64,000 bases of DNA from Candidatus Zixiibacteriota bacterium. Lineage in GTDB: Bacteria > Zixibacteria > MSB-5A5 > SM23-73-2. A model generated the notes under the pieces. It was given only the letters and a program-made list of their open reading frames with translations. It was not told the origin of the DNA and ran no database searches. Positions 6,911 to 47,514 of this stretch are shown piece after piece. The stretch is taken from positions 9,838 to 73,837 of the forward strand of contig JAUWYR010000004.1 of assembly GCA_030615745.1 (NCBI GenBank), given 5' to 3'. The translations under genes and the position numbers were made by a program. Within the stretch, counting starts at the first letter, position 1, and every line of letters begins with the position of its first letter.

Positions 6911-8853
6911 AGATGGAAAACCTTTTAGATAAAATCAACTCACCTGCGGACTTAAAAAAGATCCCTTTAGAAAAACTTCCCCAATTAGCTGAAAAGATAA
7001 GGGGAAAAATCATATCAGTTGTTTCAAAAAACGGAGGACACCTGTCCTCGAATTTAGGTGCGGTTGAACTGACGCTTGCCCTGCATTATGTGTTTGACTC
7101 GCCCAAGGATAAAATCGTCTGGGATGTGGGGCACCAGTGTTACACTCATAAGCTTTTAACTGGAAGAAAAGAGAAATTTGAAACCATAAGAAAATACCTT
7201 GGACTTTCAGGATTTCCAAAAAAGGATGAATCAGAGCACGATGTTTTCGATGTTGGACATGCCTCTACATCCATCTCCTCCGCTCTTGGATTAGTCTGCG
7301 CAAGAGATTTAAAAGGGGAGGACTTTTCTGTAATTGCTGTTATCGGGGATGGAGCATTAAGTGGTGGATTGTCCTTTGAGGGACTTAACAATGCTGGAGC
7401 GCAGAAAAAAGACTTAATCGTGATCTTAAATGATAACTCCATGTTCATATCAAAGAACGTGGGGGCTATGGCTAAATATCTGACTGACCTTTTGACTGAT
7501 GAGAAGTATAACAAGCTCAAAGCAGAAGTTTGGGAGCTTGTGGGTAAGTTTAAACGAAGAGATAAGATCAGAGCTATGGTTCAGCAAGTTGAGGAGTCAG
7601 TGAAGGGTTTTTTAGTTCCCGGGATTATATTTGAGAAATTAGGTTTCAGATATTTCGGACCTATAGATGGGCATCACCTTCCTCAATTGATCAAGACATT
7701 ATCCCATCTCAAGACTTTAAAAGGACCGATATTTCTTCATGTTCTGACTAAAAAAGGGAAGGGATATAAATATGCTGAGGAGGATGCCCCCCGTTTTCAT
7801 GGTATAGGCTCTTTTGACAAGGTAACTGGAAATTCCAACTCTGAGAAAGGAAGAAAGGCTTTCACCGATGTGTTCTCAGAAGCGATGGTGGAGATAGGAG
7901 AAAAAGATGAGAAAGTTGTTGCGATAACTGCTGCTATGTCTTTAGGCACCGGACTTTACTCTTTTGCCCAGAAGTTCCCACAAAGATTTTTCGATGTTGG
8001 AATAGCAGAACAGCATGGCGCCGCATTCTCTGCTGGCTTAGCTCGTCAAGGCTTAAAGCCTGTTTTTGCGGTCTATTCAACATTTTTGCAAAGGGCTTTT
8101 GATCAGGTTATTCATGATATCGCCTTGCAAAATCTTCCGGTGACTTTAGCAATAGATAGAGCAGGAATAGTTGGTGAGGATGGACCCACTCATCACGGCT
8201 TTCTTGATTTATCATATCTTCGTGGAATTCCCAATTTTGTGATTGCCTCCCCCAAAGATGGAAAGGAGCTAAAGGATTTACTTTACACCGCAGTCAACTG
8301 GAAAAAATCTCCTTTTGCATTGAGGTATCCGAGATGTCCTGTTCCTGATCAACCTGAAAAAGTCGGTATCGATCAAGAGAAAAGTTTTGGAAAGATAGAG
8401 GTGGGGAGCTGGGAGGTTTTGAGAGAGGGGAATGATATTTTGATCTTAGCCACAGGCTCTGTGGTTATTCCTTCGGTTGAGGCTTCTTTTAAACTCACAA
8501 AAGATTATATTGATGCCACTGTGGTAAATTGCAGGTTTATAAAACCTCTGGATGAGACCCTTCTTTTTTCACTTTTAAAAAAGCATGAATTTGTTTTAAC
8601 AGTTGAGGAGAATTCGCTTCTGGGTGGATTTGGCTCTGCGATTTTGGAGTTTATCCAAAAAAACAGCTTAAATAATATCCATTTGAAAATGCTGGGAATT
8701 CCGGATAAATTCATCCAGCATGGTAAAAGGGGTCTCCTTTTAAAAGATCTGGGGCTTGACCCTGATGGGATTTTTAAAGCTGTAAAAGAATTGTTAAAGA
8801 CAAAAAGGGGGAAATTAAAGTTTCAGATCTCAAAACAAAACAAATTAAAATGA
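6907..8853 (+). CDS. dxs: 1-deoxy-D-xylulose-5-phosphate synthase
   Basis: TPP-binding GHxSSxLG...GDGxxxGG, transketolase-like domains; contains in-frame 16-mer repeat at 8365-8380. Confidence 0.9.
   Translation: MKMENLLDKINSPADLKKIPLEKLPQLAEKIRGKIISVVSKNGGHLSSNLGAVELTLALHYVFDSPKDKIVWDVGHQCYTHKLLTGRKEKFETIRKYLGLSGFPKKDESEHDVFDVGHASTSISSALGLVCARDLKGEDFSVIAVIGDGALSGGLSFEGLNNAGAQKKDLIVILNDNSMFISKNVGAMAKYLTDLLTDEKYNKLKAEVWELVGKFKRRDKIRAMVQQVEESVKGFLVPGIIFEKLGFRYFGPIDGHHLPQLIKTLSHLKTLKGPIFLHVLTKKGKGYKYAEEDAPRFHGIGSFDKVTGNSNSEKGRKAFTDVFSEAMVEIGEKDEKVVAITAAMSLGTGLYSFAQKFPQRFFDVGIAEQHGAAFSAGLARQGLKPVFAVYSTFLQRAFDQVIHDIALQNLPVTLAIDRAGIVGEDGPTHHGFLDLSYLRGIPNFVIASPKDGKELKDLLYTAVNWKKSPFALRYPRCPVPDQPEKVGIDQEKSFGKIEVGSWEVLREGNDILILATGSVVIPSVEASFKLTKDYIDATVVNCRFIKPLDETLLFSLLKKHEFVLTVEENSLLGGFGSAILEFIQKNSLNNIHLKMLGIPDKFIQHGKRGLLLKDLGLDPDGIFKAVKELLKTKRGKLKFQISKQNKLK
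8365..8380 (+). repeat. GGTATCGATCAAGAGA 16-mer (dispersed repeat, in-frame in dxs)
   Basis: identical 16-mer at 8979-8994 (in nadK) and 10564-10579 (intergenic). Confidence 0.55.
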
Positions 8854-9734
8854 AAAGCATAGGTATAATCGCTAATCCTAAAAAGCCGAAGGTAAAAAAG
8901 ATAATAGAACAGATGATTTTGTGGGCTGAAAAAAATAAAATCGACTGCTATCTTTCCGATGAGCTAAAAGATTTGGTCGGTATCGATCAAGAGATTGGAA
9001 AAAAAGAAAAACTCTTACCTTTATCTTCACTCCCTGATAAATCAGAGGTTTTAATATCTTTGGGCGGGGATGGAACTATGCTCAAAACTGCGAGAACAGC
9101 GGGAGAAAAGTGTAATCCAATACTTGGAATAAATCTTGGAAGCTTAGGATTTATCACCGAGACAACGACAAACGATCTTGAGAAGACCTTAAATCGTTTG
9201 TTAAAAAAGGAATTCCAACTCGAAAAAAGAATGGTTTTGAAGGCGAAAATCGATTTGATGGACCAGCCATATGTTTTCGCTTTAAATGATGTAGTTTTGG
9301 ACAAAGGAGGTGTTGCCAGATTAATTCAGATGCACCTTTACGACAAGGATGAGTTCGTCTGTTCATATTCTGCTGATGGATTAATAATCTCCACGCCCAC
9401 CGGTTCAACCGCATATTCTTTAGCTTCAGGTGGACCGATAATAAATCCCAAAATAAACGCAATTATTGTTGCACCGATCTGCCCCCATACCCTTGCCTCC
9501 AGGCCAATCATCTTTTCAGAAAAAGGTAATTTGAAAATTGTTGTTGAATGCGACCAGAGAGATGCTCTGCTCACCATAGATGGGCAGATCGCCAAAACAT
9601 TAAAGTCTGGAACCTCGGTTTTAGTAAGCAAAGCAGAGCACACTGTTAATCTTATAAAATTTCCAGAATCTTCCTTTTACTCTGTTTTAAGAAAGAAGCT
9701 CCACTGGGGTGCAAGACCGAGGACAGAGGAGTAA
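8850..9734 (+). CDS. nadK: NAD+ kinase
   Basis: [34 protein letters not shown] motifs. Confidence 0.9.
   Translation: [294 protein letters not shown]
8979..8994 (+). repeat. GGTATCGATCAAGAGA 16-mer (in-frame in nadK)
   Basis: exact copy of 8365-8380. Confidence 0.55.
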
Positions 9735-9905
9735 TTTTTTTATAGAGGGAAAGATATAAAAAGGGGAAAGGACGCTTTTACAGGATAAAGAAAAATTAAA
9801 ACCGCAGTAAAGTTTAAAAAGCAAAATTAAAAAATTTAAAAAAATATTTATGAAAAGATGAAGATATTTTATGGTAATGCTCTGCAAAAGGTCAAAAAGT
9901 TCTAA

Positions 9906-10451: not shown

Positions 10452-10563
10452 AAGTCAAAGGTAAATCTTTTAGCTGATAATTTTTTTCAATAACAACAAG
10501 GATAATAATCTCTGAAGCTGAAAAAAAGTTTTTAAAAATTTTTTCAAACGAAACTTTATTCTC

Positions 10564-10588
10564 GGTATCGATCAAGAGATAAGATTTT
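10564..10588 (+). repeat. GGTATCGATCAAGAGATAAGATTTT dispersed repeat copy (intergenic)
   Basis: 16-mer identical to 8365/8979; 3' part ATCAAGAGATAAGATTT identical to 37844-37860. Confidence 0.55.
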
Positions 10589-11711: not shown

Positions 11712-11713
11712 AA

Positions 11714-11750
11714 TCCTAAATTCTAAATTCTAAATTCAAAATTCAAAATA
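11714..11750 (+). repeat. 7-nt microsatellite (TAAATTC/AAAATTC) x5
   Basis: CCTAAATTCTAAATTCTAAATTCAAAATTCAAAAT. Confidence 0.5.
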
Positions 11751-16522: not shown

Positions 16523-16562
16523 CTTATCATATTACTCGCAGTTGACAGGAGGTTGGTTAAAA

Positions 16563-18474: not shown

Positions 18475-20223
18475 ATCACCATACTTCCCCAAGATTTGGT
18501 TAACAAAATCGCTGCTGGTGAGGTGGTGGAGCGTCCGGCATCTGTTGTCAAGGAGCTGGTTGAGAATTCGATCGATGCTAAGGCTAAAAGTATTAAGGTG
18601 AAAATAAGATTCGGCGGGGTGAAATTAATAGAAGTTACAGATGATGGGGAAGGGATGAATCCTGAGGATGCGGAGCTTTCTTTAAAAAGACATGCGACAA
18701 GCAAGATAAAAGAAAAAGACGACCTTTATAATATAAAAACCTTAGGTTTCAGAGGGGAAGCTCTACCATCCATTGCCTCTGTTTGCTTTTTGGAACTTTT
18801 AACAAGACAAAAAGATGCACTTTCAGGAACTTTTCTAAGCTTAGAAGCAGGTATGATAAAACAAAAAAAAGAGATCGGCGCGCCTTGTGGAACATCTGTA
18901 ACTGTAAAAGAGCTTTTTTATAATACCCCTGCAAGGCTTAAGTTTTTAAAATCCAAACTCACTGAAACCAAACATATAATCGACCTTATACAGAATTATG
19001 CCTTAGCATATCCATCTCTATTATTTGAGCTCGAATCTGACCAGAGAACTCTTCTGAATTTACCAGCTTCAATTTTAAAACAGAGAATAGCTGACATCTG
19101 GGGAAATGATCTGAAATCAAAATTGGTAGAGATGGAAAAAGAAAGGTCCGACCCTGAGATTTTCGGATTTTTAGGAAAGCCTGAACTCACAAGGTCTAAT
19201 CGTTCTGAAATACGCATTTTCGTTAACAGAAGACCTGTGGTCTCAAGGGTCTTAAATCATGCTATACAATCGGGATATAGAGACCTTCTTCCACAGGGGA
19301 AATTTCCCTTTGCTTTTGCCTTTTTCGAGATAGACCCGGAAAAGATCGATGTGAACGTTCATCCAACAAAAAGGGAGATCAAATTCTCAAATGAACATCA
19401 AATCTACAATCTGCTATATTTGAAAGTGAAAAAGTCACTTAAGAGTTTTCAGACTATCCCTTCATACAATCTTTCATCTGAAAAATTGGTATCTGAAAAG
19501 TCCGAAAAAGCTAAAGTTGGAGAAAAAATAATTGATTATAGCACAAAAATGCAAAAACCCGACTTTATTCAGGAAAAGATAATTGATAAAATCTATCCTG
19601 CTGAAAAAAGGAAAGAAATTGAGCCAGAAGAAAAAACAACTTTTCAGAAAATTTGGCAAATCTTTGATCAATATATATTGGTCCAGAACGAAGATGAGTT
19701 ATGGATTATCGACCAGCACGCAGCACATGAGAGGATACTTTATGAAGAAATAAGTGAGAATATAGGCAAAAGTGGTCTATTATCACAAAAGCTGCTTTTT
19801 CCAGAGACACTTGAGCTCTCTCCAAAAGAGTTTTTGATCTACCGGGAAAATTCCGATATTTTACTAAAGTTAGGATTTGAGGTGGAGCTTTTCGGTAAGA
19901 ACAGCCTTTTAATTTCTGGGGTTCCATCTCTTTTAAAAAACCGGTCTGAAAAAAACTTTTTCTGTGAGCTTTTATCTGAGCTGGATGAAAATTTAAAAAA
20001 AGAAGGGGACAGGATAAAATCGGTTGCTAAAGCTTTTGCCTGTAAATCAGCGATAAAATCAGGCCTGAGGCTTTCTTATGAGGAGATAAAAACACTTTAC
20101 CAGAGTCTTTTATCAACAAAAAATCCCTTCAGTTGTCCTCATGGCAGACCAACCATTATAAAAATATCACTTGAAGAGCTCGATAAAAAGTTTATGCGAA
20201 GCATTCTTCGAAAAAGAACCTGA
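18463..20223 (+). CDS. mutL: DNA mismatch repair protein MutL
   Basis: GHKL ATPase N-term (AAGEVVERPASVVKELVENSIDA), GFRGEALPSIASV, C-terminal dimerisation domain. Confidence 0.92.
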   Translation: MKNKITILPQDLVNKIAAGEVVERPASVVKELVENSIDAKAKSIKVKIRFGGVKLIEVTDDGEGMNPEDAELSLKRHATSKIKEKDDLYNIKTLGFRGEALPSIASVCFLELLTRQKDALSGTFLSLEAGMIKQKKEIGAPCGTSVTVKELFYNTPARLKFLKSKLTETKHIIDLIQNYALAYPSLLFELESDQRTLLNLPASILKQRIADIWGNDLKSKLVEMEKERSDPEIFGFLGKPELTRSNRSEIRIFVNRRPVVSRVLNHAIQSGYRDLLPQGKFPFAFAFFEIDPEKIDVNVHPTKREIKFSNEHQIYNLLYLKVKKSLKSFQTIPSYNLSSEKLVSEKSEKAKVGEKIIDYSTKMQKPDFIQEKIIDKIYPAEKRKEIEPEEKTTFQKIWQIFDQYILVQNEDELWIIDQHAAHERILYEEISENIGKSGLLSQKLLFPETLELSPKEFLIYRENSDILLKLGFEVELFGKNSLLISGVPSLLKNRSEKNFFCELLSELDENLKKEGDRIKSVAKAFACKSAIKSGLRLSYEEIKTLYQSLLSTKNPFSCPHGRPTIIKISLEELDKKFMRSILRKRT

Positions 20224-25827: not shown

Positions 25828-27573
25828 ATGAAATGGTCTGAAACCTACATTCCGACTTTAAGAGAGTTTCCAGCTGAGGCTGAGATCATCTCACATAAGC
25901 TTCTGATCAAGGCTGGGTATATCAGAAAATTAACCTCCGGGGTGTATAACTATCTTCCACTTATGCAATCAGTCCTTTTAAAAATCACAAACATTGTCAG
26001 AGAGGAGATGAACAAATCCGGTGCCCAGGAGATTTTAATGCCGGTTTTGCATCCAGCTGAGCTCTGGCAGAAATCTGGAAGATGGGAGACCGTTGGTAAA
26101 GAACTGATGAGAATGAGGGATAGACATCAGAGGGATCTGGTCTTAGGAGGAACTCATGAGGAAGTTGTAACAAATTTGATAAAGGGAGAGATACGCTCCT
26201 ACCGTCAACTCCCTGTAAATTTATATCAGATTCAAACTAAATTCAGAGATGAGATAAGACCGAGGTTCGGCTTGATGAGAGGAAGGGAATTTCTGATGAA
26301 GGATGCCTATACCTTTGATGCGAATGAGAAAAGCTTCAATATAAGTTATCAGAAGATGGTAGATGCCTACTTTAAGATTTTCAAAAGATGCGGTTTGGAA
26401 ACCAAGATGGTTGAATCGGACACTGGAGCAATGGGAGGAAAAGCCGCTCATGAATTTATGGTGATAGTTGATACCGAAGGAGGCGAAAACATCATCTTTT
26501 ATTGTGACAGGTGCGACTACTCAGCAAATATTGACAAAGCGAGCTCTTTTGATTTGAAAGAGATAAAATCCGAAGGATTCACAGAAAAAGAAACTTTCAA
26601 AAAAATGGAGAAAGTCCATACTCCAGATAAAAAGACGATCGAGGAGGTAACTTTATTTTTAAATCAGCCACCGGAGAAACTTGTTAAAACTTTAATATAT
26701 AGAGCGGATGGAAATTTAGTTGCCGCATTGATAAGGGGAGACAAGGAGATAAATGAGGTGAAATTGAAAAATGCGCTCGGATGTATCCAGTTGGAGATGG
26801 CTGACTCCGAATCAATCAAAAAATTAACGAAAGCAGAAGTTGGATTCTCAGGTCCTGTGGGTCTGAAAGGTGTAAAAATGATAGTGGATGAGCAGATACC
26901 AAACCTTTTCAACTTCGTTACCGGAGCAAATCAAAATGATTACCACCTTGTAAACGTCAATTCAGAAAGGGATTTTAAAATCGACCAGGTAGCTGATATA
27001 AAAACCGCAAAGGAGGGCGAGGGTTGTCCAAAATGTAAAAAAGGTAGACTTAAAACTGATAGGGGAATTGAGGTTGGGAATACATTCATGCTCGGAACAA
27101 AATATAGCCAGTCCCTGGGAGCCACTTTTATAGATAAAGATGGAAAAGAGAAACCATTTATTATGGGCTCCTATGGTGTGGGGATAACTCGAACAGCTCA
27201 GGCTGCTGTGGAAAAATATCACGACGAAAAGGGGATAATCTGGCCAGTTTCAATTGCTCCTCTGCATATAAATATTCTTCCAGTGAATATCCAGGACCAA
27301 ACACAAAAAAATGTTGCCTTCGATATCTATCAAAGGATGAAAGAAAATAAAATGGAGGTTCTAATAGATGATAGGGATGAAAGGGCAGGGGTTAAGTTCA
27401 ACGATTCTGATCTGATCGGTCTACCCCTGAGGATAACAGTAGGAGAAAAATATCTTAAAAAGAAAAAAGTAGAGCTTACACTAAGAGGAAAAAACGAAAC
27501 TTTATTTTGCCCAAAAGAGGAGGTTTTAGAAAAGAGCAAAAAGATTTTAGAAAAACTAAAGGCTGTGTTTTAA
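25828..27573 (+). CDS. proS: prolyl-tRNA synthetase (bacterial type with editing domain)
   Basis: class II aaRS motifs, N-term MKWSETYIPTLREFPAEAEIISHKLLIKAGYIRKL. Confidence 0.92.
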   Translation: MKWSETYIPTLREFPAEAEIISHKLLIKAGYIRKLTSGVYNYLPLMQSVLLKITNIVREEMNKSGAQEILMPVLHPAELWQKSGRWETVGKELMRMRDRHQRDLVLGGTHEEVVTNLIKGEIRSYRQLPVNLYQIQTKFRDEIRPRFGLMRGREFLMKDAYTFDANEKSFNISYQKMVDAYFKIFKRCGLETKMVESDTGAMGGKAAHEFMVIVDTEGGENIIFYCDRCDYSANIDKASSFDLKEIKSEGFTEKETFKKMEKVHTPDKKTIEEVTLFLNQPPEKLVKTLIYRADGNLVAALIRGDKEINEVKLKNALGCIQLEMADSESIKKLTKAEVGFSGPVGLKGVKMIVDEQIPNLFNFVTGANQNDYHLVNVNSERDFKIDQVADIKTAKEGEGCPKCKKGRLKTDRGIEVGNTFMLGTKYSQSLGATFIDKDGKEKPFIMGSYGVGITRTAQAAVEKYHDEKGIIWPVSIAPLHINILPVNIQDQTQKNVAFDIYQRMKENKMEVLIDDRDERAGVKFNDSDLIGLPLRITVGEKYLKKKKVELTLRGKNETLFCPKEEVLEKSKKILEKLKAVF

Positions 27574-32381: not shown

Positions 32382-33432
32382 AGAAATTCTTAAAAAAATC
32401 GAGCAAAGCAAAAAGATACTTATAACATCACACACAGATCCAGATGGAGATTCTTTCTGTTCACAGCTTGCTTTAGCTAATTTTTTGGATAGTCTTGGCA
32501 AGACCTATGAAATTTTTAACCAGGGAGAAATCTCGAGCAAATATCTTTTTTTAGATGAGAAAAGAAGAATAAAAAACAAATCTCTTGATGCATACGCAAA
32601 AACAGTTCAAAATCTTTTATCTTCTCCTAAAGATTATGATTTAGTTATATTCATTGAGTGCTCTAATCTGGATCGAGTTGGGTGGGTTAAAAATTTGATA
32701 CCAGAGGATAGTTTTTTGATAAACATAGACCATCACCGGGATAACACCTTTTTCGGCAGTATAAATTATGTTGACCCAAAAGCTTCTGCTACCGGTGAGA
32801 TGATCTATGATATTATGAAAACCTTTGGATTTTCTTTTGATAAAAAAACTGCTGAGTTAATCTATGTAGCTATAATGACCGATACAGGAAGATTCAAATA
32901 CTCCAATACCACTCCCAAATCTCTGAGGGTATGTGCTGATTTGTTAGGATATGGAGTGGACATTCGCTTTTTAACAGAAAAGATCTATTTCAATTTTTCT
33001 GAACCTGCTTTGAGGCTTTTAGGAACTACTTTGGAAAACTTAGAGCTTTTCGCAGGTAATAAAATATCTTTTTTGACCATTACTTATCCTATGCTGGAAA
33101 AGTTTAAAGTCCCACATCAGGATATTGATGGGTTTGTTGAATTTTCGTTATCTTTAGAAGATAGTAAAGTTGGAGCACTTTTTTTGGAGACAAAAAAGGG
33201 GTTCGCTCAAGTGAGCTTGAGGTCTTGTGATTTTATGGATGTTTGCCAAATAGCTAAAAGCTTTGGTGGAGGAGGTCACAAAAACGCATCAGGTTTTTTA
33301 TCTGAGGGAAAAATCGATGTGGTTAAAAGAAAAGTTTTAGATTCCCTTTTAAAAAAGCTTAAGGAGAAATCCTCAAGCTTCTCTAAAAAAAAGATGTCAT
33401 ACAAAATCGAAAATCGAAAAGAAAAAAGATGA
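32353..33432 (+). CDS. nrnA: DHH/DHHA1 phosphoesterase, bifunctional oligoribonuclease/pAp phosphatase NrnA
   Basis: HTDPDGDS, DHH (IDHH), DHHA1 GGGGHKNASG; start may be a few codons downstream (overlaps rbfA). Confidence 0.8.
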   Translation: MRKGKRLETKEILKKIEQSKKILITSHTDPDGDSFCSQLALANFLDSLGKTYEIFNQGEISSKYLFLDEKRRIKNKSLDAYAKTVQNLLSSPKDYDLVIFIECSNLDRVGWVKNLIPEDSFLINIDHHRDNTFFGSINYVDPKASATGEMIYDIMKTFGFSFDKKTAELIYVAIMTDTGRFKYSNTTPKSLRVCADLLGYGVDIRFLTEKIYFNFSEPALRLLGTTLENLELFAGNKISFLTITYPMLEKFKVPHQDIDGFVEFSLSLEDSKVGALFLETKKGFAQVSLRSCDFMDVCQIAKSFGGGGHKNASGFLSEGKIDVVKRKVLDSLLKKLKEKSSSFSKKKMSYKIENRKEKR

Positions 33433-34448
33433 CTCAGAATTTAGCTAAAAAGACAAATGCTTTTTCCTTACGTAACTCTACGGGTCTTTTTAATGGAAAA
33501 AAAATTCTTGATGGTCTTTTGATAGTAAACAAAAAAAGGGGTCCCACCTCTTTTGATGTCGTCCAAAAGTTGCGTAATATACTAAATTACAAAAGGATAG
33601 GACATACAGGGACACTCGACCCCTTTGCCTCAGGTGTATTGGTTTGTTGTCTTGGCAAGGGAACAAAAATTGTCCAGTTTATAACTTTTTGGGAAAAAGA
33701 ATATATCGCAAAGATTAAGTTAGGTGAACAGACCGATACATACGACTCTCAGGGAAAGATTGTGAAAAAATTCGAAGAATGCTTCGCAAATGAGGGATTT
33801 GTGCTCGAAGAAAATAAAATACAAAGTGTGATAGATTCTTTTAAAGGTGAAATTTGGCAAACTCCTCCTTTGTATTCAGCAATAAAATATAAGGGAAAAA
33901 AACTGTACCAATTTGCAAGAGAGGGAAAAGAGGTTAAAATTAAAAAAAGAAAAGTAAAAATTGAAAATATTGAGATTTTAAAGATAAAGCTCCCCTTTGT
34001 TTGGATAAAAGTAAGGTGTTCTAAAGGAACCTATATCAGGAGCTTAGGTTTTGATATTGGTAAAAAGTTAGGTTGCGGAGCATATCTAATTTCTCTATGT
34101 CGAACCAAGGTGGGTCCATTTGAGCTAAAAGATTCTTTCACTCTCGATGCAATAAGAAAAATAAAAGATGAGGGTAAATTGAACAAAATCGTTGTCTCTA
34201 TGGAAAAAGCACTCGAAAATCTCCCATCTCTTGTGGTCTCAGATGAGAACAAATTCAAAATAAAGCATGGTCAAGACCTTAAAGTAAAGGATATAAAATC
34301 TGTGAAAAAAGATTTCTCAAAAAAAGATAGGGTGGTTTTAAAGGATGGCTCTGGGAAAATCTTGGCAATAGGGGAAAGTCTGGTCTCCTCTGAAGAGATC
34401 TCAGATGAACAAAAAGTAATTTTTAGATACATGAGGGTAGTTGTTTGA
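33429..34448 (+). CDS. truB: tRNA pseudouridine(55) synthase TruB with PUA domain
   Basis: GHTGTLDPFASGVL catalytic-Asp motif; N-terminal ~25 aa extension, true start possibly later. Confidence 0.85.
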   Translation: MTQNLAKKTNAFSLRNSTGLFNGKKILDGLLIVNKKRGPTSFDVVQKLRNILNYKRIGHTGTLDPFASGVLVCCLGKGTKIVQFITFWEKEYIAKIKLGEQTDTYDSQGKIVKKFEECFANEGFVLEENKIQSVIDSFKGEIWQTPPLYSAIKYKGKKLYQFAREGKEVKIKKRKVKIENIEILKIKLPFVWIKVRCSKGTYIRSLGFDIGKKLGCGAYLISLCRTKVGPFELKDSFTLDAIRKIKDEGKLNKIVVSMEKALENLPSLVVSDENKFKIKHGQDLKVKDIKSVKKDFSKKDRVVLKDGSGKILAIGESLVSSEEISDEQKVIFRYMRVVV

Positions 34449-35506
34449 TGGAGGTCATTTTCGACATAACAAAAATCGATTCATCTTTTTTCAAAAGACC
34501 GGTGGTAACTTTAGGGACATTCGATGGAGTCCATCTCGGGCATCAGTTAATAATAAGAAAAGTGGTTGAAAAGGCAAAAAAGAAAAAGAAAAAAAGCGTT
34601 CTGGTCACCTACGAGCCACATCCTCAATGGATTATTGACCCAGAAACTGCCCCTTTTATTCTTACAACCCTTGATGAAAAATTATTGTTTCTCGAAAAAT
34701 TAGGGCTGGACCTGACCATAGTGGTTAATTTTGATAAAAACTTTTCAAAAACCTCAGCTGAAGAATTCATAAAAAAGATTTTGGTGGAAAAATTAAATAT
34801 AGGTGAATTGGTGGTTGGATATGACCACGCATTTGGAAAAAACAGAAAGGGACGCCTGCCACTTTTGAAAAAGAAAGCTAAGGAGTATCGATTTGGATTG
34901 GAGGTTATCTCTCCTATTAAAAATGACGATTTACCCATAAAAAGCACAAAAATAAGATTTGAACTCAAATCAGGGGACTTTCAAAAAGCTGTTAAGATGT
35001 TGGGTCACGCTTATCCGATCTTGGGTAAAAAAGTGGAGGGCAAAGGCAGAGGATATAAGCTCGGCTTTCCCACCATAAATCTAAAGGTTCCTGAAAGAAA
35101 GCTTCTCCCTCAAGACGGGGTCTTTTCAGCAGAGGTGAAAATTAAAGAGGAGTTTTATCGGGGAATGGTTTATTACGGGAAAAGTCCTACTTTTGAATAC
35201 AAATCAAAATCTTTGGAAGTGAATATATTCGACTTCGAACCAGAAGAAGATGTTGAAAAAGTCTTCCTTTCTCTTTTTGACTGGATTAGACCTGATATCA
35301 AATTCGATAATTTAGATGCATTAAAAAGAAAGCTTAAAGAGGATGAGAAAAAAGTCAAAAGATTACTTATGCGAAGCCTTAGGAGTCCTTCGGACATTTC
35401 GTCAAGATGTCGTCAAGACTCTTCGAGCTTCGCACATACGAAAAGAAAAAATTTAAAAGGAGGTTTTTTTGCCAATAGAGAAACAAAGAAGACAAAAGCT
35501 TGTTGA
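34445..35506 (+). CDS. ribF: bifunctional riboflavin kinase / FAD synthetase
   Basis: FAD-synthetase [11 protein letters not shown], riboflavin kinase domain; unusual ~45-aa C-terminal tail encoded by a dispersed-repeat copy (35375-35450) and overlapping rpsO. Confidence 0.8.
35375..35450 (+). repeat. degenerate copy of GACTCTTCGAGC / GTCAAGA short-repeat family
   Basis: CTTCGGACATTTCGTCAAGATGTCGTCAAGACTCTTCGAGC related to 37882-37917 and 39310-39350. Confidence 0.4.
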
Positions 35507-35752: not shown

Positions 35753-37855
35753 ATGAATGAGACAAAAAAGATCGACTTAGAAGGAAAAAAACTTATCTTT
35801 GAGACCGGGCGGATGGCGAAGCAAGCAGATGGAGCTTGCCTGGTAAAACTTGGTGACACTATGGTCTTAGCTACCGCAGTGGTAGATAAAGAGGAAAAAG
35901 AGGAAAACAAGTTCAGGGGATTTTTCCCTCTGACTGTTGATTACAGAGAGAAGGCTTATGCTGCTGGCAAAATACCTGGAGGATTTTTCAAAAGGGAGGG
36001 AAGACCTTCTGAAAAAGAGATCTTATCCTCAAGACTTATTGACCGCTCCTTAAGACCTCTTTTTCCTGAAGGCTATCATAAAGAGGTTCAGGTAGTAGCG
36101 ATGGTCTTATCATCTGATCAGGAAAATGATGGAGACATTTTGGGAATCAATGGTGCCTCTATCGCATTATCCCTTTCATCTATTCCTTTCTGCGGACCGA
36201 TTGGAGCTGTAAGAATCGGAAGAGTAAGTCATAAATATGTGATAAACCCAACTTTCTCAGAGCTGGAGCAAAGCGATATGAATATTGTTGCCGCGGGAAC
36301 AGAGGAGAGCATAATAATGGTTGAAGGCTTTTGTAATGAGGTATCAGAGGATGAGTTCTTTTTTGCATTAGAATTATCTTTTCAACAGATAAAAAAGATC
36401 ATCGAGACACAGAAAGAGTTGATTTCAAGTTGTGGTCAGCCTAAAGAAAAAGTGAAAAAAATGCTCATCGAAGAAGACCTTAAGAAAACGCTTAAAGAAA
36501 TGTCTTTGGATCAAATAAAAAAAGCCAATCATACAGGTGATAAGAACACTCGTCAAGAGATATTGGAAAATCTTTTCGAATCGATTAAAGAGAAGTTAGC
36601 TTCATCTTTTCCAGAAAAAGAAGCTGAGATATCCTATATTTTGACAGAACTGGAAAGAGAAGAACTTCGAAGGATGATATTAGAGGAGAGGCTGAGGTCA
36701 GATGGAAGGGACTACGATACTATAAGACCCATAACTTGTGAGGTAGGGGTTTTGCCTCGCGCACATGGGTCAGCATTATTTACTCGGGGTCAAACCCAGT
36801 CTCTTGTTGCAACTACCCTCGGCACAAAAATCGATGAACAGATAGTAGATGACCTCGAAGGTGAATCGAGTAAAAGCTATATGCTACATTACAATTTTCC
36901 TCCTTTTTCGGTAGGGGAGGTTAGATACCTTCGAGCTCCTCAAAGAAGGGAGATCGGACATGGGGCTTTAGCTGAAAGAGCTATTCAACCGATGATTCCA
37001 AAGGAGGAGGTATTTCCATATACCATTCGTGTCGTTTCAGATATTCTGGAATCAAATGGCTCCTCCTCCATGGCAACAGTTTGCGGTGGCTCTTTATCTC
37101 TGATGGATGCCGGTATTCCAATCAAAGCCCCGGTAGCAGGAATCGCTATGGGTCTTTTGAAAAAGGAAGAAAAGGTGGTTATTCTCACCGACATCTTAGG
37201 TGTTGAGGACCATTTTGGAGATATGGACTTCAAGGTGGCTGGAAGCAGACAGGGGATAACAGCTTTTCAGATGGATATAAAAATATCTAAAATTGAGCTT
37301 GCTATTTTAAGAAAGGCTCTTTCTAAAGCTAAGGATGCATACTTGTTCATCTTGGATGTTATGGAAAAAACGATTTCTGAGCCGAGGGAAAACCTCTCGG
37401 TCTATGCTCCGCGAATAATCATTTTTAAGATAAAATCAGATAAGATCGGAGACGTGATAGGTCCTGGAGGGAAAACGATAAGAGGAATAATTAAGCAAAC
37501 CGGTGCAAAAATTGACATTGAAGATGATGGCTCAATATTTATAGCTACCCCTGACCAGAAGGCAGCAGAACTGGCTCACGATTTAATTCTGAGACTGGTG
37601 GAAGAGCCCGAGATCGGGAAAGTCTATACTGGAAAGGTGAAAAGGATTTTACCATTTGGGGCTTTGGTGGAGATACTCCCCGGACAGGAGGGTTTAGTCC
37701 ATATATCTGAATTGGACCATAAAAGGGTATACAAGGTCGAGGACGTTATTAATTTAGGTGATGAGGTTAAGGTTAAGATTTTAGGAATAGAGCCAGATGG
37801 AAAAATCAAGCTTTCAAGAAAGGCATGTCTCAGACCATCATCTATCAAGAGATAA
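35753..37855 (+). CDS. pnp: polynucleotide phosphorylase (PNPase)
   Basis: two RNase PH domains, KH and C-terminal S1; rpsO-pnp adjacency. Confidence 0.92.
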   Translation: MNETKKIDLEGKKLIFETGRMAKQADGACLVKLGDTMVLATAVVDKEEKEENKFRGFFPLTVDYREKAYAAGKIPGGFFKREGRPSEKEILSSRLIDRSLRPLFPEGYHKEVQVVAMVLSSDQENDGDILGINGASIALSLSSIPFCGPIGAVRIGRVSHKYVINPTFSELEQSDMNIVAAGTEESIIMVEGFCNEVSEDEFFFALELSFQQIKKIIETQKELISSCGQPKEKVKKMLIEEDLKKTLKEMSLDQIKKANHTGDKNTRQEILENLFESIKEKLASSFPEKEAEISYILTELEREELRRMILEERLRSDGRDYDTIRPITCEVGVLPRAHGSALFTRGQTQSLVATTLGTKIDEQIVDDLEGESSKSYMLHYNFPPFSVGEVRYLRAPQRREIGHGALAERAIQPMIPKEEVFPYTIRVVSDILESNGSSSMATVCGGSLSLMDAGIPIKAPVAGIAMGLLKKEEKVVILTDILGVEDHFGDMDFKVAGSRQGITAFQMDIKISKIELAILRKALSKAKDAYLFILDVMEKTISEPRENLSVYAPRIIIFKIKSDKIGDVIGPGGKTIRGIIKQTGAKIDIEDDGSIFIATPDQKAAELAHDLILRLVEEPEIGKVYTGKVKRILPFGALVEILPGQEGLVHISELDHKRVYKVEDVINLGDEVKVKILGIEPDGKIKLSRKACLRPSSIKR

Positions 37856-37860
37856 GATTT
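37844..37860 (+). repeat. ATCAAGAGATAAGATTT dispersed repeat (at pnp stop)
   Basis: identical to 10572-10588. Confidence 0.5.
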
Positions 37861-37881: not shown

Positions 37882-37917
37882 TCCGAAGGATTTCCGAAGG
37901 ACTCTTCGAGCATAGAA
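37882..37917 (+). repeat. 36-nt dispersed repeat TCCGAAGGATTTCCGAAGGACTCTTCGAGCATAGAA (intergenic copy)
   Basis: 36/36 identical copy inside murI at 48107-48142. Confidence 0.75.
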
Positions 37918-39214: not shown

Positions 39215-40233
39215 CTTCTATTCAGAAAATGAAACCTATTTTATTTCCCCTTTTTTTTCTTTTAATTTTAAGTTTATCACTTTTTTTTATCTGGAGAATT
39301 GTGTATGCGCGTATGCGTCAAGAGACCGAAGGTCAAGAGACATCAAGAGAAAGGTTTAAATCCCAACAATTTTCATCCGAAAATGCGTATGCATCAAGAG
39401 ATAAAAATAATATTTTACTCTATCATAAAATAGAAGATAAGTGGGAGTGGGGAATCACCCGACAAAGGATAAGCCAATTTGAAAAGCAGATGAAATTTCT
39501 TTATAAGCAGGGTTATAAATTGATGAGGTTGGACCTGTCCGGTCAGGAAAAAAATTTCACTAATGACTTTGATTCTGAGAACAAAAAGATTTTTTTGACC
39601 TTTGATGATGGTTATGAATCTGTCTATACTCATGCTTTTCCTATTCTTGAGAAGTTTGGTTTTTCTGCAACTGTTTTTCTTATCACAGGATGGGTAGGAA
39701 AAAAGAATTTGTGGGATATAAACTGGGGGAAAAAGTTTAATCACCTCTCTTGGTCACAGATAGAAGAGCTTAAAAAATTCGGATTTAATTTTGGTTCTCA
39801 TACTGTGAATCATCCTGATCTAACTAAACTTAATGGAAAAGAAGTTGAATATGAGCTTTTGAATTCAAAAAATATGATAGAAGATAGGTTAGGGGAGAGG
39901 GTTGAGTTTTTATCCTATCCATTTGGAAAATATAATAGATCAGTTCAAAGAATTGCTGAAGATATTGGTTATAAAAACGCGTTCACTATTTGCTCTGGAC
40001 CAAAAAAATTTTCCGACCCATATGCTTTAGGACGATTAGGGATCTATCTTTTTGATTCGAGCTTGACTTTACATATAAAATTGAACCAAACACCAATTTT
40101 TTGGATAGAGGATATGAAAGGAAGGATAATTAACCAATTTGCCAATGGGACAACTCTTTTCAAGTCAAAACCAAAATACGATTTTTGCTTAAAAAGTGAA
40201 AAGCCTAAAAGTATCTTCGTAAAAAAGGTATGA
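39199..40233 (+). CDS. polysaccharide deacetylase (NodB homology) with N-terminal TM anchor
   Basis: TFDDGY, HTVNHPDL motifs; aa ~30-70 (ARMRQETEGQETSRERF...NAYASRDKN) encoded by CAAGAGA-family repeats 39301-39402; start may be ATG 39229. Confidence 0.75.
   Translation: MGTFLTSIQKMKPILFPLFFLLILSLSLFFIWRIVYARMRQETEGQETSRERFKSQQFSSENAYASRDKNNILLYHKIEDKWEWGITRQRISQFEKQMKFLYKQGYKLMRLDLSGQEKNFTNDFDSENKKIFLTFDDGYESVYTHAFPILEKFGFSATVFLITGWVGKKNLWDINWGKKFNHLSWSQIEELKKFGFNFGSHTVNHPDLTKLNGKEVEYELLNSKNMIEDRLGERVEFLSYPFGKYNRSVQRIAEDIGYKNAFTICSGPKKFSDPYALGRLGIYLFDSSLTLHIKLNQTPIFWIEDMKGRIINQFANGTTLFKSKPKYDFCLKSEKPKSIFVKKV
39301..39402 (+). repeat. cluster of CAAGAGA-family short repeats inside deacetylase ORF
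   Basis: GTGTATGCGCGTATGCGTCAAGAGACCGAAGGTCAAGAGACATCAAGAGA ... TGCGTATGCATCAAGAGAT; matches 397-418, 46009-46041(rc), 46199-46218. Confidence 0.6.
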
Positions 40234-44468: not shown

Positions 44469-44821
44469 AGGCAAAACCAGGGATTTTTGATGATTGATGA
44501 TTAATGAAGATTTTTAAATTGCGAGGTGAGTTTACATAATGTTTATTATAAGACCTTTTATGGTTCGCTTTATCTTGAGTTCTTAAAAGATAAAGTTCGC
44601 ATTCCTTCTTTTTTAGAGGGAAACTTTTGTTCGCTTTTTTTAGCCTGGTCAAATGGAAGAAATTTTAAAACCCAGTTCCCTGACGTTAGGAGGATTCCAT
44701 TATGAAGTCATTATCTGTAAAAGGAGCCGGCAGAGCTTCCCAGAAATCCCAGCCCACGTATGTCAAACTCTTAATGGAATGCGAACCTTTCAGGTTTGCC
44801 TTTCCTTATAGTTTTTCTTAA

Positions 44822-44890
44822 AAGTAAAGCTGAAGCTTTACACTCCATATCTCACCTTATAGATTTGGTTTTTTCAGAAATCTCTTATTT
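44822..44890 (+). repeat. repeat GTAAAGCTGAAGCTTTACACTCCA...TTTTTTCAGAAAT (copy 1)
   Basis: related copy at 49111-49185 (GTAAAGCTAAAGCTTTACACTCCA...TTTTTCTGAAAAG). Confidence 0.5.
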
Positions 44891-44911
44891 TAAGATTATG
44901 TGGGTTATTGA

Positions 44912-45148
44912 CTTAAACTAAAACTTTAAGTCATAATAATATATTATCTGGAGTGCAACAACTTGTTGTTGCAACTCTATGCGAAAACAAGTTTTCGCAC
45001 TACCTAAGAGAAAAGCAGAGCAAGGGTGCTCTGCGCTATGAGGTTTTGTGTTTTTTGAACAGACAGGAATGTCTGTTCTACCTTCGGTTATTTTTTAACA
45101 TCGGGCATGTTCGAAGAATGCTTCGCAAAGCCCGACGCTACATTTAAA
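44912..45148 (+). repeat. nested repeat, long form (CTTAAACTAAAACTTTAAGTC ... CCCGACGCTACATTTAAA) with ~180-nt highly structured interior
   Basis: termini identical to short form 45233-45289; interior carries perfect hairpins TGCAACAACTTGTTGTTGCA, GCGAAAACAAGTTTTCGC, GCAGAGCAAGGGTGCTCTGC, GAACAGACAGGAATGTCTGTTC. Confidence 0.55.
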
Positions 45149-45232
45149 AAAATTTATCAAACACAAAAATTGGGATTACTAACTATCTTTGCAAACGTTT
45201 TTTATTTTTCAGCAAACCTCTCCCCTATCAGA

Positions 45233-45289
45233 CCTAAACTAAAACTTTAAGTCGAACGTCGGGTATGAAACCCGACGCTACGCTTAAAT
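45233..45289 (+). repeat. nested repeat, short form (CCTAAACTAAAACTTTAAGTC-GAACGTCGGGTATGAAA-CCCGACGCTACGCTTAAAT)
   Basis: see 44912-45148. Confidence 0.55.
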
Positions 45290-45545
45290 TTTCTGTGCTG
45301 GTCAAGTCCCCTGACTCGACCAGAAAATCTCTGTTCCGCGGGGATGTTATCTCTGGCCAGCCAGGCATCCCCGCAAATAAATTCTGGGTGGATGATAACA
45401 TCCGCCCAGAACAAAGAAATATATGTACGTAATCTTTTGTCCCTAAATCCTTTTTTTAGGAACAATTATTATTAATTAGTATATAAGTATATGATATGCT
45501 CAAATTTCCTTGCAACATGATTTTCATTTTGATATATTAAAAAAG

Positions 45546-46016
45546 ATGGAAAAAAAAGAAGAGATAAAAATAGTAGCGACTAACAGGAAGGCTCATCACG
45601 ACTATACTATAGTTGAGACCTATGAGGCTGGGTTGGAACTAAAGGGGAGCGAGGTTAAATCTTTAAGGGAAGGTAAAGTCTCTTTGAGGGACTCCTTTGC
45701 CAGGATAGTTGATGAACAGCTACATTTATTAAATATGCACATAAGCTCCTATGAGAAGGCATCTAAGTTTGGACATGATCCAAAAAGAACAAAAAAATTG
45801 TTGATGCATAAAAGGGAAATAAAAAGACTTATGGGCAAAACTTTTGAAAAGGGATACACCTTAGTCCCTTTAAAAATCTACTTTAAAGGAAGTTTTGCCA
45901 AGGTGGAATTAGCCCTAGTCACTGGTAAAAGAAAATATGATAAAAGGAGAGCCCTGGCTGAAAAAGAGGCTAAAAGAAAAATAGAAAGAGCCTTTAAAGA
46001 GAGACAAATCTCTTGA
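45546..46016 (+). CDS. smpB: SsrA-binding protein
   Basis: IVATNRKAHHDYTIVETYEAGLELKGSEVKSLR...; start placed at MEKKEE (ORF-track start 45510 extends into non-coding repeat). Confidence 0.88.
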   Translation: MEKKEEIKIVATNRKAHHDYTIVETYEAGLELKGSEVKSLREGKVSLRDSFARIVDEQLHLLNMHISSYEKASKFGHDPKRTKKLLMHKREIKRLMGKTFEKGYTLVPLKIYFKGSFAKVELALVTGKRKYDKRRALAEKEAKRKIERAFKERQIS

Positions 46017-46041
46017 TGTCTCTTGACCTTCGGCATACGCA
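46009..46041 (-). repeat. CAAGAGA-family repeat (rc orientation) spanning smpB stop / amidase upstream
   Basis: TCTCTTGATGTCTCTTGACCTTCGGCATACGCA = rc of TGCGTATGCCGAAGGTCAAGAGACATCAAGAGA (cf. 39316-39350). Confidence 0.55.
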
Positions 46042-46047
46042 AATAAG

Positions 46048-47514
46048 ATGGCAAAAAAAGTAGCTTTTTTAACAATCTTTTTAGTGTCGTCGTTTGCCTT
46101 TACATCTTTATCCCAAAGCATTTATGAACTTTCAAACTTACCTAAAGTAAAAATAGATAAAGTTGATTATGTTTGTTTAGATGAAGTTGTCCGGGTTTTG
46201 CGTATGCATCAAGAGATAGGTGGTAAGATTTATCAGGATGAAAAAGAGGGAAAAGCGATATGGTATTATAAGGGTCAAAGATTGGAATTTACACCCTTTT
46301 CCCCTTACGTTTTAATTGATAACTCAATCTATGATCTTTTGTTCGAGGTAAAATTAAAGAAAGGGGAAATCTTTGTTCCTCAAAAAAATTTCTTTTCCCT
46401 TTTAAAAGAGTTAAAAAAGCAAAGCAAAAAATTCAAGGAAAACTTATCTCTTGATGCATACGCATTTTCAAAACCCTCTTATCTTGAGTATAACATCACA
46501 GATATTTTTGCATCTAAAAAGCTCAATGGAATTTTAATCGAGATATTTATTTCCTATCCCATAAATTATGAGGTTTTTAAAAGTGAGAATAACTGTATCA
46601 ACATTTTCTTCTATGAGGGGAAAATCGACACCGGTTATTTTAATTTCAAAGAAATTCCAAGTATAATAAAAAAGATAACGGCTTATCAATACGGAAACTC
46701 AGTCCAGGTCTCCTTATGGACGAAAAAGTCCTTTCATACACTATCCCACAATCTGGAATCTTTTCCTTTTCGTATTCAAATCTCCTTGGAGGATACAACC
46801 GAGATTGCTAAAAGTGCACAAGATGATCTAATCGACGTGGTGGTCATTGACCCAGGTCATGGTGGGGTCGATTTTGGATTTTTTGGTCAAAGGAGTCTTT
46901 GGGAAAAAGATATCACTTTAGATATAGCCTTAAGGTTAAAAAAGCTTTTAGAGAAAGAAACTGATTTAAAAGTTGTCCTTACAAGAGATTATGATGTTTT
47001 TATTCCTCTTAAAAAAAGAGCAAGAATAGCAAATAAAGAGGGTGGAGACCTGTTAATAAGCATTCACTGTGAATTTTCTGAGGACGAAAATGAATCTGGA
47101 TTTGAAATCTTCTTTTTCGGAGAGTCTCAAAAAGATAAAGAAACGACTTTAACTTTTAAAGAGGATTTAGAAAAAACCAATGAAATTTTTTCTGATTCGA
47201 TTTTTATTCTCCCTGACACCACCCAATACCTGTTCTTTGAACAGTCAAAAAATTTAGCTTTTATAGTTTGTGAGGAGATGGAAAAAAAACTTAAAATGTT
47301 TTCAAAGGGAATTTTTCAAGAAAAGTTTTTAGTTTTGAAAAAAGCCTATATGCTTGGAATTTTAGTTAATTGTGGATTTATCTCCAATCCAGATGAGGAA
47401 AAGCTTTTGGCACAAAGTCCTTTTAGAGAAAAAATTGCAGAGGCTCTGTTTTTTGGAATAATGAGGTTTAAAATTGAGGGTGAGCACGAAAAAAGCTATG
47501 AAGCTAAAAGATGA
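46048..47514 (+). CDS. N-acetylmuramoyl-L-alanine amidase (AmiC-like: AMIN domain + amidase_3)
   Basis: signal peptide, amidase_3 core VVIDPGHGG...DLLISIHCE; contains two in-frame CAAGAGA-family repeats (46199-46218, 46446-46464). Confidence 0.8.
   Translation: MAKKVAFLTIFLVSSFAFTSLSQSIYELSNLPKVKIDKVDYVCLDEVVRVLRMHQEIGGKIYQDEKEGKAIWYYKGQRLEFTPFSPYVLIDNSIYDLLFEVKLKKGEIFVPQKNFFSLLKELKKQSKKFKENLSLDAYAFSKPSYLEYNITDIFASKKLNGILIEIFISYPINYEVFKSENNCINIFFYEGKIDTGYFNFKEIPSIIKKITAYQYGNSVQVSLWTKKSFHTLSHNLESFPFRIQISLEDTTEIAKSAQDDLIDVVVIDPGHGGVDFGFFGQRSLWEKDITLDIALRLKKLLEKETDLKVVLTRDYDVFIPLKKRARIANKEGGDLLISIHCEFSEDENESGFEIFFFGESQKDKETTLTFKEDLEKTNEIFSDSIFILPDTTQYLFFEQSKNLAFIVCEEMEKKLKMFSKGIFQEKFLVLKKAYMLGILVNCGFISNPDEEKLLAQSPFREKIAEALFFGIMRFKIEGEHEKSYEAKR

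Follow-up and report, generated by a model that had tools for sequence, protein, structure and literature searches.

We analysed a stretch of 64,000 nucleotides (nt) from contig JAUWYR010000004.1 of Candidatus Zixiibacteriota bacterium, hereafter the window, and found that a short dispersed repeat with a CAAGAGA core is an 18-nt unit that has spread by insertion. Its copies have exact ends, lie in both orientations, duplicate no target sequence, covary in their hairpin stems and prefer the sequence TNNG at the insertion site. The family is thus a real, active and unusually small mobile element in an uncultured phylum. Our favoured explanation, to which we assign a probability of about 0.58, is that it represents an ultra-short non-autonomous mobile DNA element proliferating in one lineage of Zixibacteria, and that a hairpin-recognising enzyme would copy and paste it in trans as single-stranded DNA (ssDNA).

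Insertion of 18-nt units in housekeeping genes

The copy in nadK (8977..8994, + strand) encodes GIDQEI, belongs to subtype B of the element and is a very recent insertion. When compared with the strain sequences L080, L081 and L082 (96-97% nucleotide identity), it was an exact 18-nt insertion: the missing unit was TCGGTATCGATCAAGAGA, the empty site read GATTTGG^TTGGAAAA, and nothing was duplicated. In agreement, a NadK of 294 residues was found only in the window and in its 99% identical twin P0121, among the 120 listed homologues about 20 had a length other than 288 residues, and the six additional residues were absent from the aligned 288-residue homologues at 72-98% identity. A 4-nt target-site duplication (AAAG...AAAG at dxs, TTGG...TTGG at nadK) was considered and rejected, as the empty nadK allele already has TTGGTTGG.

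The amidase gene contains two subtype A copies, RMHQEI in the N-terminal region (46199..46217, +) and SLDAYA, read antisense (46446..46464, −). Each is a 6-residue insertion, found in none of nine homologues at 62% identity or less (P0002-P0014). The 95% identical amidase P0001, from strain L029, carries both, and also a third insertion, LLMHTH, which is the same 18-mer in another reading frame and whose site is empty in the window. At the DNA level, the comparison with L029 showed an 18-nt insertion, ATCTCTTGATGCATACGC, on the L029 side, and two insertions on the window side only, namely a 34-nt composite at the smpB-amidase junction and a 36-nt element of a different sequence family in the racemase gene, whose extra 12 residues are lacking in the L029, L030 and L032 proteins. 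The 34-nt composite (46007..46040, −; the reverse complement of GCGTATGC-CGAAG-GTCAAGAGAC-ATCAAGAGA-TT) gives smpB its TGA stop and forms the spacer to the amidase gene. In distant relatives these two genes abut with no spacer, and in L076 the composite holds an extra nested 18-nt unit, GCGTATGCGTCAAGAGAC. No target-site duplication was detected at filled and empty sites, the difference being exactly 18 nt.

The Dxs copy (8363..8380, +; subtype B, TCGGTATCGATCAAGAGA) encodes (V)GIDQE in the linker at the junction of the pyrimidine-binding and C-terminal domains. It is common to L080-L082, with one stem mutation in L081, and the linker of the window protein exceeded those of 12 distant Dxs proteins by 5-7 residues and those of the E. 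coli and P. aeruginosa enzymes by 6. The N-terminal linker of a polysaccharide deacetylase contains a 51-nt composite (39300..39350, +; TGTGTATGC-GCGTATGC-GTCAAGAGAC-CGAAG-GTCAAGAGAC-ATCAAGAGA), whose 17 codons correspond to 17 residues lacking in the L032 and L033 orthologues. The subtype A copy in the same linker (39384..39402, +), which reads AYASRD, falls where orthologues vary in length, and the insertion is not cleanly delimited. A further subtype A copy (TGCGTATGCATCAAGAGA plus T; 32580..32598, −), read antisense as SLDAYA in a DHH/NrnA-like gene, occupies a variable loop about 10 residues longer than that of Thermotoga TM1595. For the copy of a sister family, F2, inside truB (33771..33788, −; FEECFA), the HMMER alignment to Thermotoga TruB has a 6-residue gap immediately downstream.

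Relatives at 60-70% protein identity had 0 copies at the syntenic loci, and strains that have diverged by about 3% in nucleotide sequence (about 97% identity) differed by five independent element indels. Because the in-gene residues are absent from orthologues and near-identical strains, the alignments argue that these copies are insertions and not accommodated substitutions. An earlier examination of the DNA letters, hereafter the sequence-only reading, had proposed that host-protein alignments be searched for insertions, and these do appear at the in-gene copies in nadK and the amidase gene. Nor do the in-gene copies match conserved orthologue residues; they are 18-nt (6-residue) insertions missing from orthologues, even in 96-98% identical strains. 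A separate 18-nt indel, GCCGAGAGAAAGGGGAAA, at 130-147 of L081 against window position 4590, near the start of the gene for the exonuclease VII large subunit, belongs to no hairpin family, and so not every 18-nt indel of the lineage is an element copy.

The in-frame additions amounted to 6 residues in NadK, Dxs and amidase and 12 in the racemase, all within open reading frames (ORFs). All five open frames of the unit were in use in long ORFs (RMHQE, AYASRD, CVCIKR, SLDAYA and LLMHT); the TGA frame was never read through in genes and was seen only as the smpB stop, and sense and antisense copies inside genes were about equally numerous. Since the length of 18 is divisible by three and only one frame of six is closed, a hit in a tolerant loop or linker would add six residues only, and copies survive in housekeeping genes; this is shown in part, and for the rest we infer it. 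Spread through essential genes would be possible simply by virtue of this length and these frames.

The repeat census was controlled with 100 dinucleotide-preserving shuffles for each repeat word. The exact repeat words had 0 matches in their 100 shuffles, so that none is expected by chance, in line with the sequence-only reading, which had judged chance recurrence negligible. The 9-mer ATCAAGAGA occurred 13 times, against 1.6 expected. An exact search located GGTATCGATCAAGAGA at 8365, 8979 and 10564, where it had been reported, and the stretch common to these three sites was the longer 18-mer TCGGTATCGATCAAGAGA, beginning at 8363, 8977 and 10562; the first report had given a 16-mer. Likewise, TGCGTATGCATCAAGAGAT was present as claimed at 39384 (+), 46199 (+) and 46446 (−), and a fourth copy at 32580 (−) had been overlooked. 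Some coordinates had to be adjusted: of the three copies of AAGGTCAAGAGACAT, the one at 397 held, and those placed at 39323 and 46009 truly start at 39329 and 46016 (−); of the ATCAAGAGATAAGATTT pair, 37844 held and 10572 became 10571. A longer match of 25 nt was found between 39326-39350 and 46009-46033. Pfam and PDB comparisons confirmed the host genes that had been named (dxs, nadK, polysaccharide deacetylase, amidase and the smpB stop), and copies do lie on both strands of the window, as the claim of two orientations required. The term 'CAAGAGA core' describes something real and understates it: the unit is a two-hairpin 18-mer, one of a wider module set that includes members without CAAGAGA.

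Three further copies of this family were located in the window. A subtype B unit with a TAAGATTT tail (10562..10587, +) is intergenic, upstream of a small ORF, and also occurs in L080. A partial or composite copy, AAGGTCAAGAGACAT and then ACGCAT (397..417, +), lies in presumed intergenic DNA upstream of an ORF with an AMP-binding domain of the acyl-CoA-synthetase type, and a partial copy made of the second hairpin and the tail (ATCAAGAGATAAGATTT; 37844..37860, +) gives the PNPase gene its TAA stop. The density is about one copy per 5 kb, with 8-9 copies on the + strand and 3-4 on the − strand, in a region of uniformly positive GC skew. Further along the window, at about 56000, the skew turns from positive to negative exactly where gene orientation switches from + to −; this flip may mark a feature of replication or simply follow the strand of transcription, and it bears on any strand-bias reading of the elements.

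Among named proteins, those closest to the amidase and NadK came from candidate division Zixibacteria, the NadK of Zixibacteria bacterium SM23_73_2 being 78-79% identical to that of the window. Close-strain fragments (95-99% nucleotide identity) were present in Logan assemblies and in the JGI metagenomes Ga0114921 and Ga0209978. A metagenome scan with the 18-mer gave 45 loci, about 23 of which were new genome sites on low-GC contigs of the same clade, mostly from sample Ga0114921, and the hosts of these copies were ordinary housekeeping and regulatory genes; four more metagenome contigs overlapped the window at 97-98% identity. Scanning a genome collection with a 17-mer gave 27 single matches, 26 of them chance-like and in unrelated taxa, with Zixibacteria SM23_73_2 (L025) as the only related genome. 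Viral contigs scanned with three element sequences gave chance single matches only, and no link to phages. The element was found at different sites in independent assemblies: the window, Logan SRR14872670, SRR25383458 and SRR26549046, JGI Ga0114921 and Ga0209978, and GenBank SM23_73_2. Collectively, the repeats are not due to chance, conserved coding sequence or an assembly artefact.

Anatomy, target sites and sister families

The 18-nt unit is composed of T-SS-GTAT-SS-A, a 10-nt mini-hairpin with a 3-bp stem and a 4-nt loop, followed by TCAAGAGA, which together with neighbouring bases makes a second small hairpin downstream, ATC-AAGA-GAT or the compensated GTC-AAGA-GAC. In the window and the clade contigs, we surveyed all sequences that stand in front of TCAAGAGA. 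The head TGCGTATGCA was seen many times, a count inflated by the fact that contigs were picked with this very sequence; TCGGTATCGA, the head of subtype B, was seen 9 times, and TCCGTATGGA and TCAGTATTGA, both with compensatory stems, once each. The head CGCGTATGCG, with a C:G outer pair, was found once and again in the nested copy of L076. The stems GC/GC, CG/CG, CC/GG and CA/TG were all paired, the outer pair was T:A or C:G, and loops of GAAT, GGAA, GGAC and GTAC were also seen. In a covariation test, 96% of the cells were paired, both sides had changed in 11 cells, and the score was attained by 0 of 500 shuffles; when the pairing partners were displaced by 1-3 columns as a control, it fell far lower. 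As judged from these sequences, the subtypes differ by compensatory stem changes.

A scan of the whole window for mini-hairpins with 3-bp stems found GTAT (9 against 2.7) and AAGA (32 against 15) as enriched loops, both contributed by this family itself, and GAA triloops were not among them. The idea of a genome-wide enrichment of mini-hairpins was dropped, as only these two loops stood out, and they came from the 18-nt family. DNA mini-hairpins of extraordinary stability and nuclease resistance, namely d(GCGAAGC), d(GCGNNAGC) and CCGAAGG, are described in PMC13037366, which also states that nearest-neighbour models miss mini-hairpin stability. Several of the modules found here contain exactly GCGAAGC, CCGAAGG, GCGAATGC and GCGGAAGC, in common with the forms in that text. 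These are, however, a structural motif and not a mobile element, and the commonest stem-loop here, GCGTATGC, is absent from the variants that the accessible text gives.

The analysis of flanks showed TNNG at +1 to +4 after 26 of 43 copies, against a background of 5.8% (p ~1e-21), and, for the families taken together, G at +4 in 41 of 55 copies. No signal was detected at other offsets of the right flank or in the left flank. TNNG was already present in both empty sites available at the DNA level, indicating that it is a feature of the target. It resembles the first four bases of the element itself (TGCG or TCGG), and this mimicry of the element start would explain tandem copies and insertions beside other modules. 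New copies were indeed found beside or inside old ones, in tandem, nested and composite forms of 34-52 nt. More than 40 copies had the same ends, exact to the nucleotide, regardless of flanks.

Other families, of 17-18, 34, 36 and 51 nt, behaved like the 18-nt element. F2 (TGCGAAGCATTCTTCGAA, with the GCGAAGC mini-hairpin) has three copies in the window: one near the end of mutL (20195..20212, +), the truB copy described above, and one in an ORF-less region upstream of smpB (45110..45127, −). On folding, F2 may form a single 5-bp hairpin rather than two. F3 is represented by an 18-nt copy, TCCGAAGGA plus TTCACAGAA, inside the prolyl-tRNA synthetase gene (26569..26586, +), with related copies in L040, L045 and L055; a form TCCGAAGGA plus TTCATAGAA was also found, and TCCGAAGGA plus TCAAGAGA occurs three times in L075. 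The 36-nt composite TCCGAAGGATT-TCCGAAGGA-CTCTTCGAG-CATAG accounts for the 12 added residues (SEGFPKDSSSIE) of glutamate racemase (48105..48140, +), and a second copy of this family is intergenic, between the PNPase and M16 peptidase genes (37882..37915, +). The ribF-rpsO intergenic region holds a cluster of mini-hairpin modules (35363..35441, +), comprising GCGAAGC, TCCTTCGGA, GTCAAGA twice, CTCTTCGAG and GCTTCGC. The CAAGAGA family is the most abundant member of this wider module superfamily, which includes F1, F2, F3 and composites.

Mode of spread and setting in the window

In the explanation that we favour, the element would be copied and pasted as ssDNA by an enzyme that recognises its hairpins and acts in trans, and our best guess for the kind of enzyme is an HUH/Y1 transposase of the IS200/IS605 or REP-associated tyrosine transposase (RAYT) type. 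Such an enzyme would cut beside a short tetranucleotide, C-N-N-A on the strand reading TCTCTTGA..., and C-N-N-A would be both the 3' end of the element (CGCA or CCGA) and its target. On this strand, the element would end in C-S-S-A and insert 3' of C-N-N-A, which is the geometry of the IS200/IS605 cleavage site. The lack of target duplication, the presence in the window of GTAG-headed hairpins similar to repetitive extragenic palindromic (REP) elements, and the hyper-stable module stems are all consistent with a single-strand hairpin route.

Several observations weigh against this explanation. Pfam searches of the window ORFs and of 65 ORFs beside copies gave no transposase, RAYT, reverse transcriptase or other candidate enzyme. 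Known elements mobilised by HUH enzymes have much longer hairpins or ends, and the GTAG/CGTC tag of REP elements is lacking here. Nearest-neighbour energies of the hairpins were weak (-1.1 to -2.3 kcal/mol) and no better than those of shuffles; thermodynamic folding is too weak as evidence either way, and the case for the structure depends on covariation in a small sample, about 12 distinct variants. Some of the T-N-N-G signal may come from an element tail, given that TAAGATTT follows about 8 copies. Finally, subtype B is clustered, with three copies in 2.2 kb and the newest 614 bp from an older one, a pattern that also fits a local process of replication or repair.

That last pattern fits the main alternative, in which the copies are by-products of replication or repair: nicks, gaps or breaks would take up or re-ligate nuclease-resistant hairpin flaps or oligonucleotides, or short template switches to a nearby copy would carry the 18-mer to new sites, with no dedicated enzyme needed. 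The three B copies within 2.2 kb, with the new nadK copy 614 bp from the older dxs copy, would be expected from such events, and so would the tandem and nested copies. The match between module stems and hyper-stable, nuclease-resistant mini-hairpins (PMC13037366), the slippage of heptamer arrays in the same genome with 14-nt indels, and the lack of a mobilising gene among the window and copy-adjacent ORFs would suit it as well. However, captured debris would hardly have base-exact ends in over 40 copies with differing flanks, nor be spread over about 23 unrelated contigs, and the T-N-N-G signature suggests that cleavage is sequence-specific. At the nadK and L029 sites, donor and target flanks had no more than 1 nt of microhomology, and for this reason a template switch from the dxs copy to nadK was rejected. 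We therefore consider by-products an unlikely origin of the family.

A functional signal kept by selection, whether an uptake sequence, a Chi site, a KOPS or architecture signal, or a protein-binding or priming site, has a low probability. Its over-represented core (13 against 1.6 expected) is nearly invariant while the flanks vary, a copy is also present in a second Zixibacteria species, SM23_73_2 (78-79% NadK identity), and, according to PMC13037366, mini-hairpins of the CCGAAGG type are primase recognition elements in some replicons. In contrast to what such a signal would require, the units are 18-nt insertions polymorphic between 96-98% identical strains and not substitutions made in place; they take both orientations relative to genes and both strands of the window, the orthologous loci of relatives with 60-70% protein identity have no copies, and several unrelated sequence families behave likewise. 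The sequence-only reading had compared the pattern with DNA uptake sequences and with a Chi-like signal, and neither comparison is supported, since the copies arise as insertion/deletion polymorphisms, in both orientations relative to genes. Pfam analysis of the window ORFs found no competence genes within the 64 kb. Function and mobility are not mutually exclusive.

It is similarly improbable that the units act or spread at the RNA level, as a terminator, a stabiliser, a regulator binding site or a reverse-transcribed RNA intermediate. Small hairpins with compensatory changes, copies at gene ends that give stop codons, and a 23S-rRNA-IVP gene (Avd-like, four-helix-bundle) in the window would fit this idea. 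Against it, sense and antisense copies are about equal inside genes, so that no single RNA strand is favoured; Rfam gave no match and ARAGORN no RNA family over the element, no reverse transcriptase was found in the window ORFs or the 65 copy-adjacent ORFs, and the copies are without poly-A, a target-primed signature or target duplication. That nothing special is present, only chance, ordinary coding similarity or an assembly or library artefact, has the short length of the motif and no other support in its favour, and can be set aside given the zero shuffle matches, the residues absent from orthologues, the different sites in independent assemblies and the preserved reading frames.

If the copy-and-paste element is mobile as we read it, the lower size limit of mobile DNA would move to 18 nt. 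Exact ends, the absence of duplication and a T-N-N-G target would then imply sequence-specific cutting and joining of ssDNA on a minimal hairpin, of interest for DNA-insertion tools, and the long-known, unexplained hyper-stable mini-hairpins (GCGAAGC, CCGAAGG) would acquire a natural genomic context. The same element would bear on recurrent 6-residue indels in conserved proteins, on the fragmentation of metagenome assemblies of this lineage (the related sample is in 1-5-kb contigs), and on annotation, which can be misled by stop codons, gene starts and spacers made by the element. A bolder version remains doubtful in our view: that this double mini-hairpin is the smallest mobile DNA yet, written at T-N-N-G targets by an uncharacterised enzyme system or by an HUH enzyme working on a far smaller substrate, and that its superfamily is remodelling loops of Zixibacteria housekeeping proteins.

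Other features of the window were also recorded. Degenerate tandem arrays of 7-9 nt units occupy intergenic DNA at 2293-2380, 4410-4530, 11691-11747, 16042-16097, 16470-16500, 18425-18455, 25601-25636, 25711-25738 and 49249-49273, with words such as GAATGAC/GGATGAA, GGTTATA/GGTCATA and CAGCAGAT/GAACGGAT. They shift by 14 nt (two units) between strains, indicating that they are slippage-prone microsatellites, distinct from the 18-nt elements. In the mutS-mutL interval, the segment 16089-18483 has the 23S-rRNA-IVP gene and a gene for a KAP-family P-loop NTPase with pentapeptide repeats, and is flanked by 80-nt direct repeats that are 93% identical (16452-16531 and 18404-18483); it looks like an inserted cassette. 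Between the nadK and CDP-alcohol phosphatidyltransferase genes, L080 (96-97% identical) carries a 3-kb island (5256-8196, against window 9743-9896) that is absent from the window and encodes an N6/N4 DNA methyltransferase-like protein, a GNAT acetyltransferase and an unknown protein of 421 residues.

Upstream of smpB, about 1 kb (44468-45510) has no ORF above about 70 residues and no tmRNA or Rfam match, and pieces of it are 68-79% identical to the same intergenic region of L030, a relative with proteins of about 60% identity; the stretch may represent an RNA gene not yet recognised or a gene in decay. No tmRNA, which is often encoded beside smpB, was detected in any part of the window. The region 49281-50302 holds clustered genes for tRNA-Pro, tRNA-Arg and tRNA-His and, next to them on the opposite strand, a truncated ORF of serine-recombinase type with the Zn_ribbon_recom domain only, which abuts tRNA-His and could be what is left of an integrated element; 147 nt just upstream (49001-49147) are lacking in L029. 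Tandem repeats inside genes were found at 3126-4286 (eight TPR units of 41 residues), 50673-51838 (five CarboxypepD_reg domains and a dockerin), 53147-53551 (15-residue repeats in an unannotated ORF of 297 residues) and 54501-55511 (SBBP beta-propeller repeats and a dockerin), and these ORFs are predicted to encode surface or secreted repeat proteins.

Comparison with known systems

Among the options of the sequence-only reading, a mini mobile element came closest to the evidence. Its suggestion of a mini version of the MITE (miniature inverted-repeat transposable element), tolerated by coding sequences, holds in that the units are dispersed, mobile, very small and accepted in frame, and fails for a MITE in the strict sense, which has terminal inverted repeats, a target-site duplication and a length of about 50-500 bp; the unit here has neither feature and measures 18 nt. 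DNA uptake sequences (DUS, Neisseria; USS, Pasteurellaceae) and Chi/KOPS motifs measure 8-12 nt, originate in place and mostly keep their positions from one strain to the next; uptake sequences go with competence machinery bearing a matching receptor and with a genome-wide density of about one per kb, and Chi and KOPS are oriented on the strand, co-directed with replication, an origin by insertion being atypical for them. The present family resembles them as a short over-represented word in coding and intergenic DNA, and differs in that its 18-nt insertions are polymorphic in near-identical strains and lie in both orientations.

The nearest analogues of the family are REP/REPIN elements and the small dispersed repeats of cyanobacteria, which it resembles in how it works, and, for tolerance in frame, the Rickettsia palindromic elements (RPEs). 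RPEs are in-frame palindromic repeats within genes that stay functional (PMC3733652). The insertions described here are also in frame within ORFs. RPEs measure about 100-150 bp and add dozens of residues, whereas the present unit has 18 nt and adds 6 residues, and its composites reach at most 52 nt.

REP elements and their doublets, REPINs, are mobilised by RAYT (TnpA-REP) transposases (Bertels & Rainey 2011, PMC3116915; Di Nocera et al. 2013, PMC3733652), and some REPs lie inside ORFs or give stop codons (PMC3733652). Like them, the 18-nt unit is short, hairpin-forming, highly repeated, non-coding and presumably moved in trans, without terminal inverted repeats of the MITE type. REPs, in contrast, have 20-40 nt, a long G+C-rich stem and an unpaired GTAG/CGTC tag, and are mainly extragenic; the unit has two 3-bp stems, no such tag (GTAT lies in the loop), and a large intragenic share. 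No cognate RAYT gene was present in the window or the 65 copy-adjacent ORFs. Separate from the 18-nt unit, the window also contains GTAG-headed, G+C-rich hairpin repeats, TGTAGGGGCGGGG...CCCCGCC, at 2385-2440, 4538-4562, 18290-18395 (reverse complement), 25642-25697 and 25747-25775, some of which share a 30-nt insert, TTGTTGAGC..GCGAAATCCCGATTTATCGGGG. These resemble classical REP elements, which suggests that a RAYT-type transposase is encoded somewhere in the genome.

With IS200/IS605 elements and their non-autonomous derivatives, the palindrome-associated transposable elements (PATEs), the unit shares the lack of target-site duplication and the insertion beside a specific short oligonucleotide that resembles the element's own end. 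Recognition through DNA hairpins is a property of theirs that we propose for the 18-nt element. The known members need two ends of tens of nt and imperfect hairpins of 9-10 bp, have at least about 100 nt, and insert with a bias for the lagging-strand template; no TnpA (Y1) gene was found in the window ORFs or those beside copies.

The last comparison is with the small dispersed repeats (SDRs) that heterocystous cyanobacteria carry. Elhai et al. (2008, Genome Res 18:1484, 'Very small mobile repeated elements') reportedly described SDR1-8, of 21-27 nt, and are said to have inferred their mobility from presence or absence between related strains. SDR5 is reported to insert precisely inside HIP1. 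SDRs and the present family have in common that they are mobile repeats far below the size of MITEs, with precise insertion into specific short sequences. The present unit differs, by description, in its 18 nt, its host lineage, Zixibacteria, and its T-N-N-G target. As with the SDRs, the dispersed repeats of less than 30 nt reported here differ in presence and absence at orthologous sites, in five independent cases.

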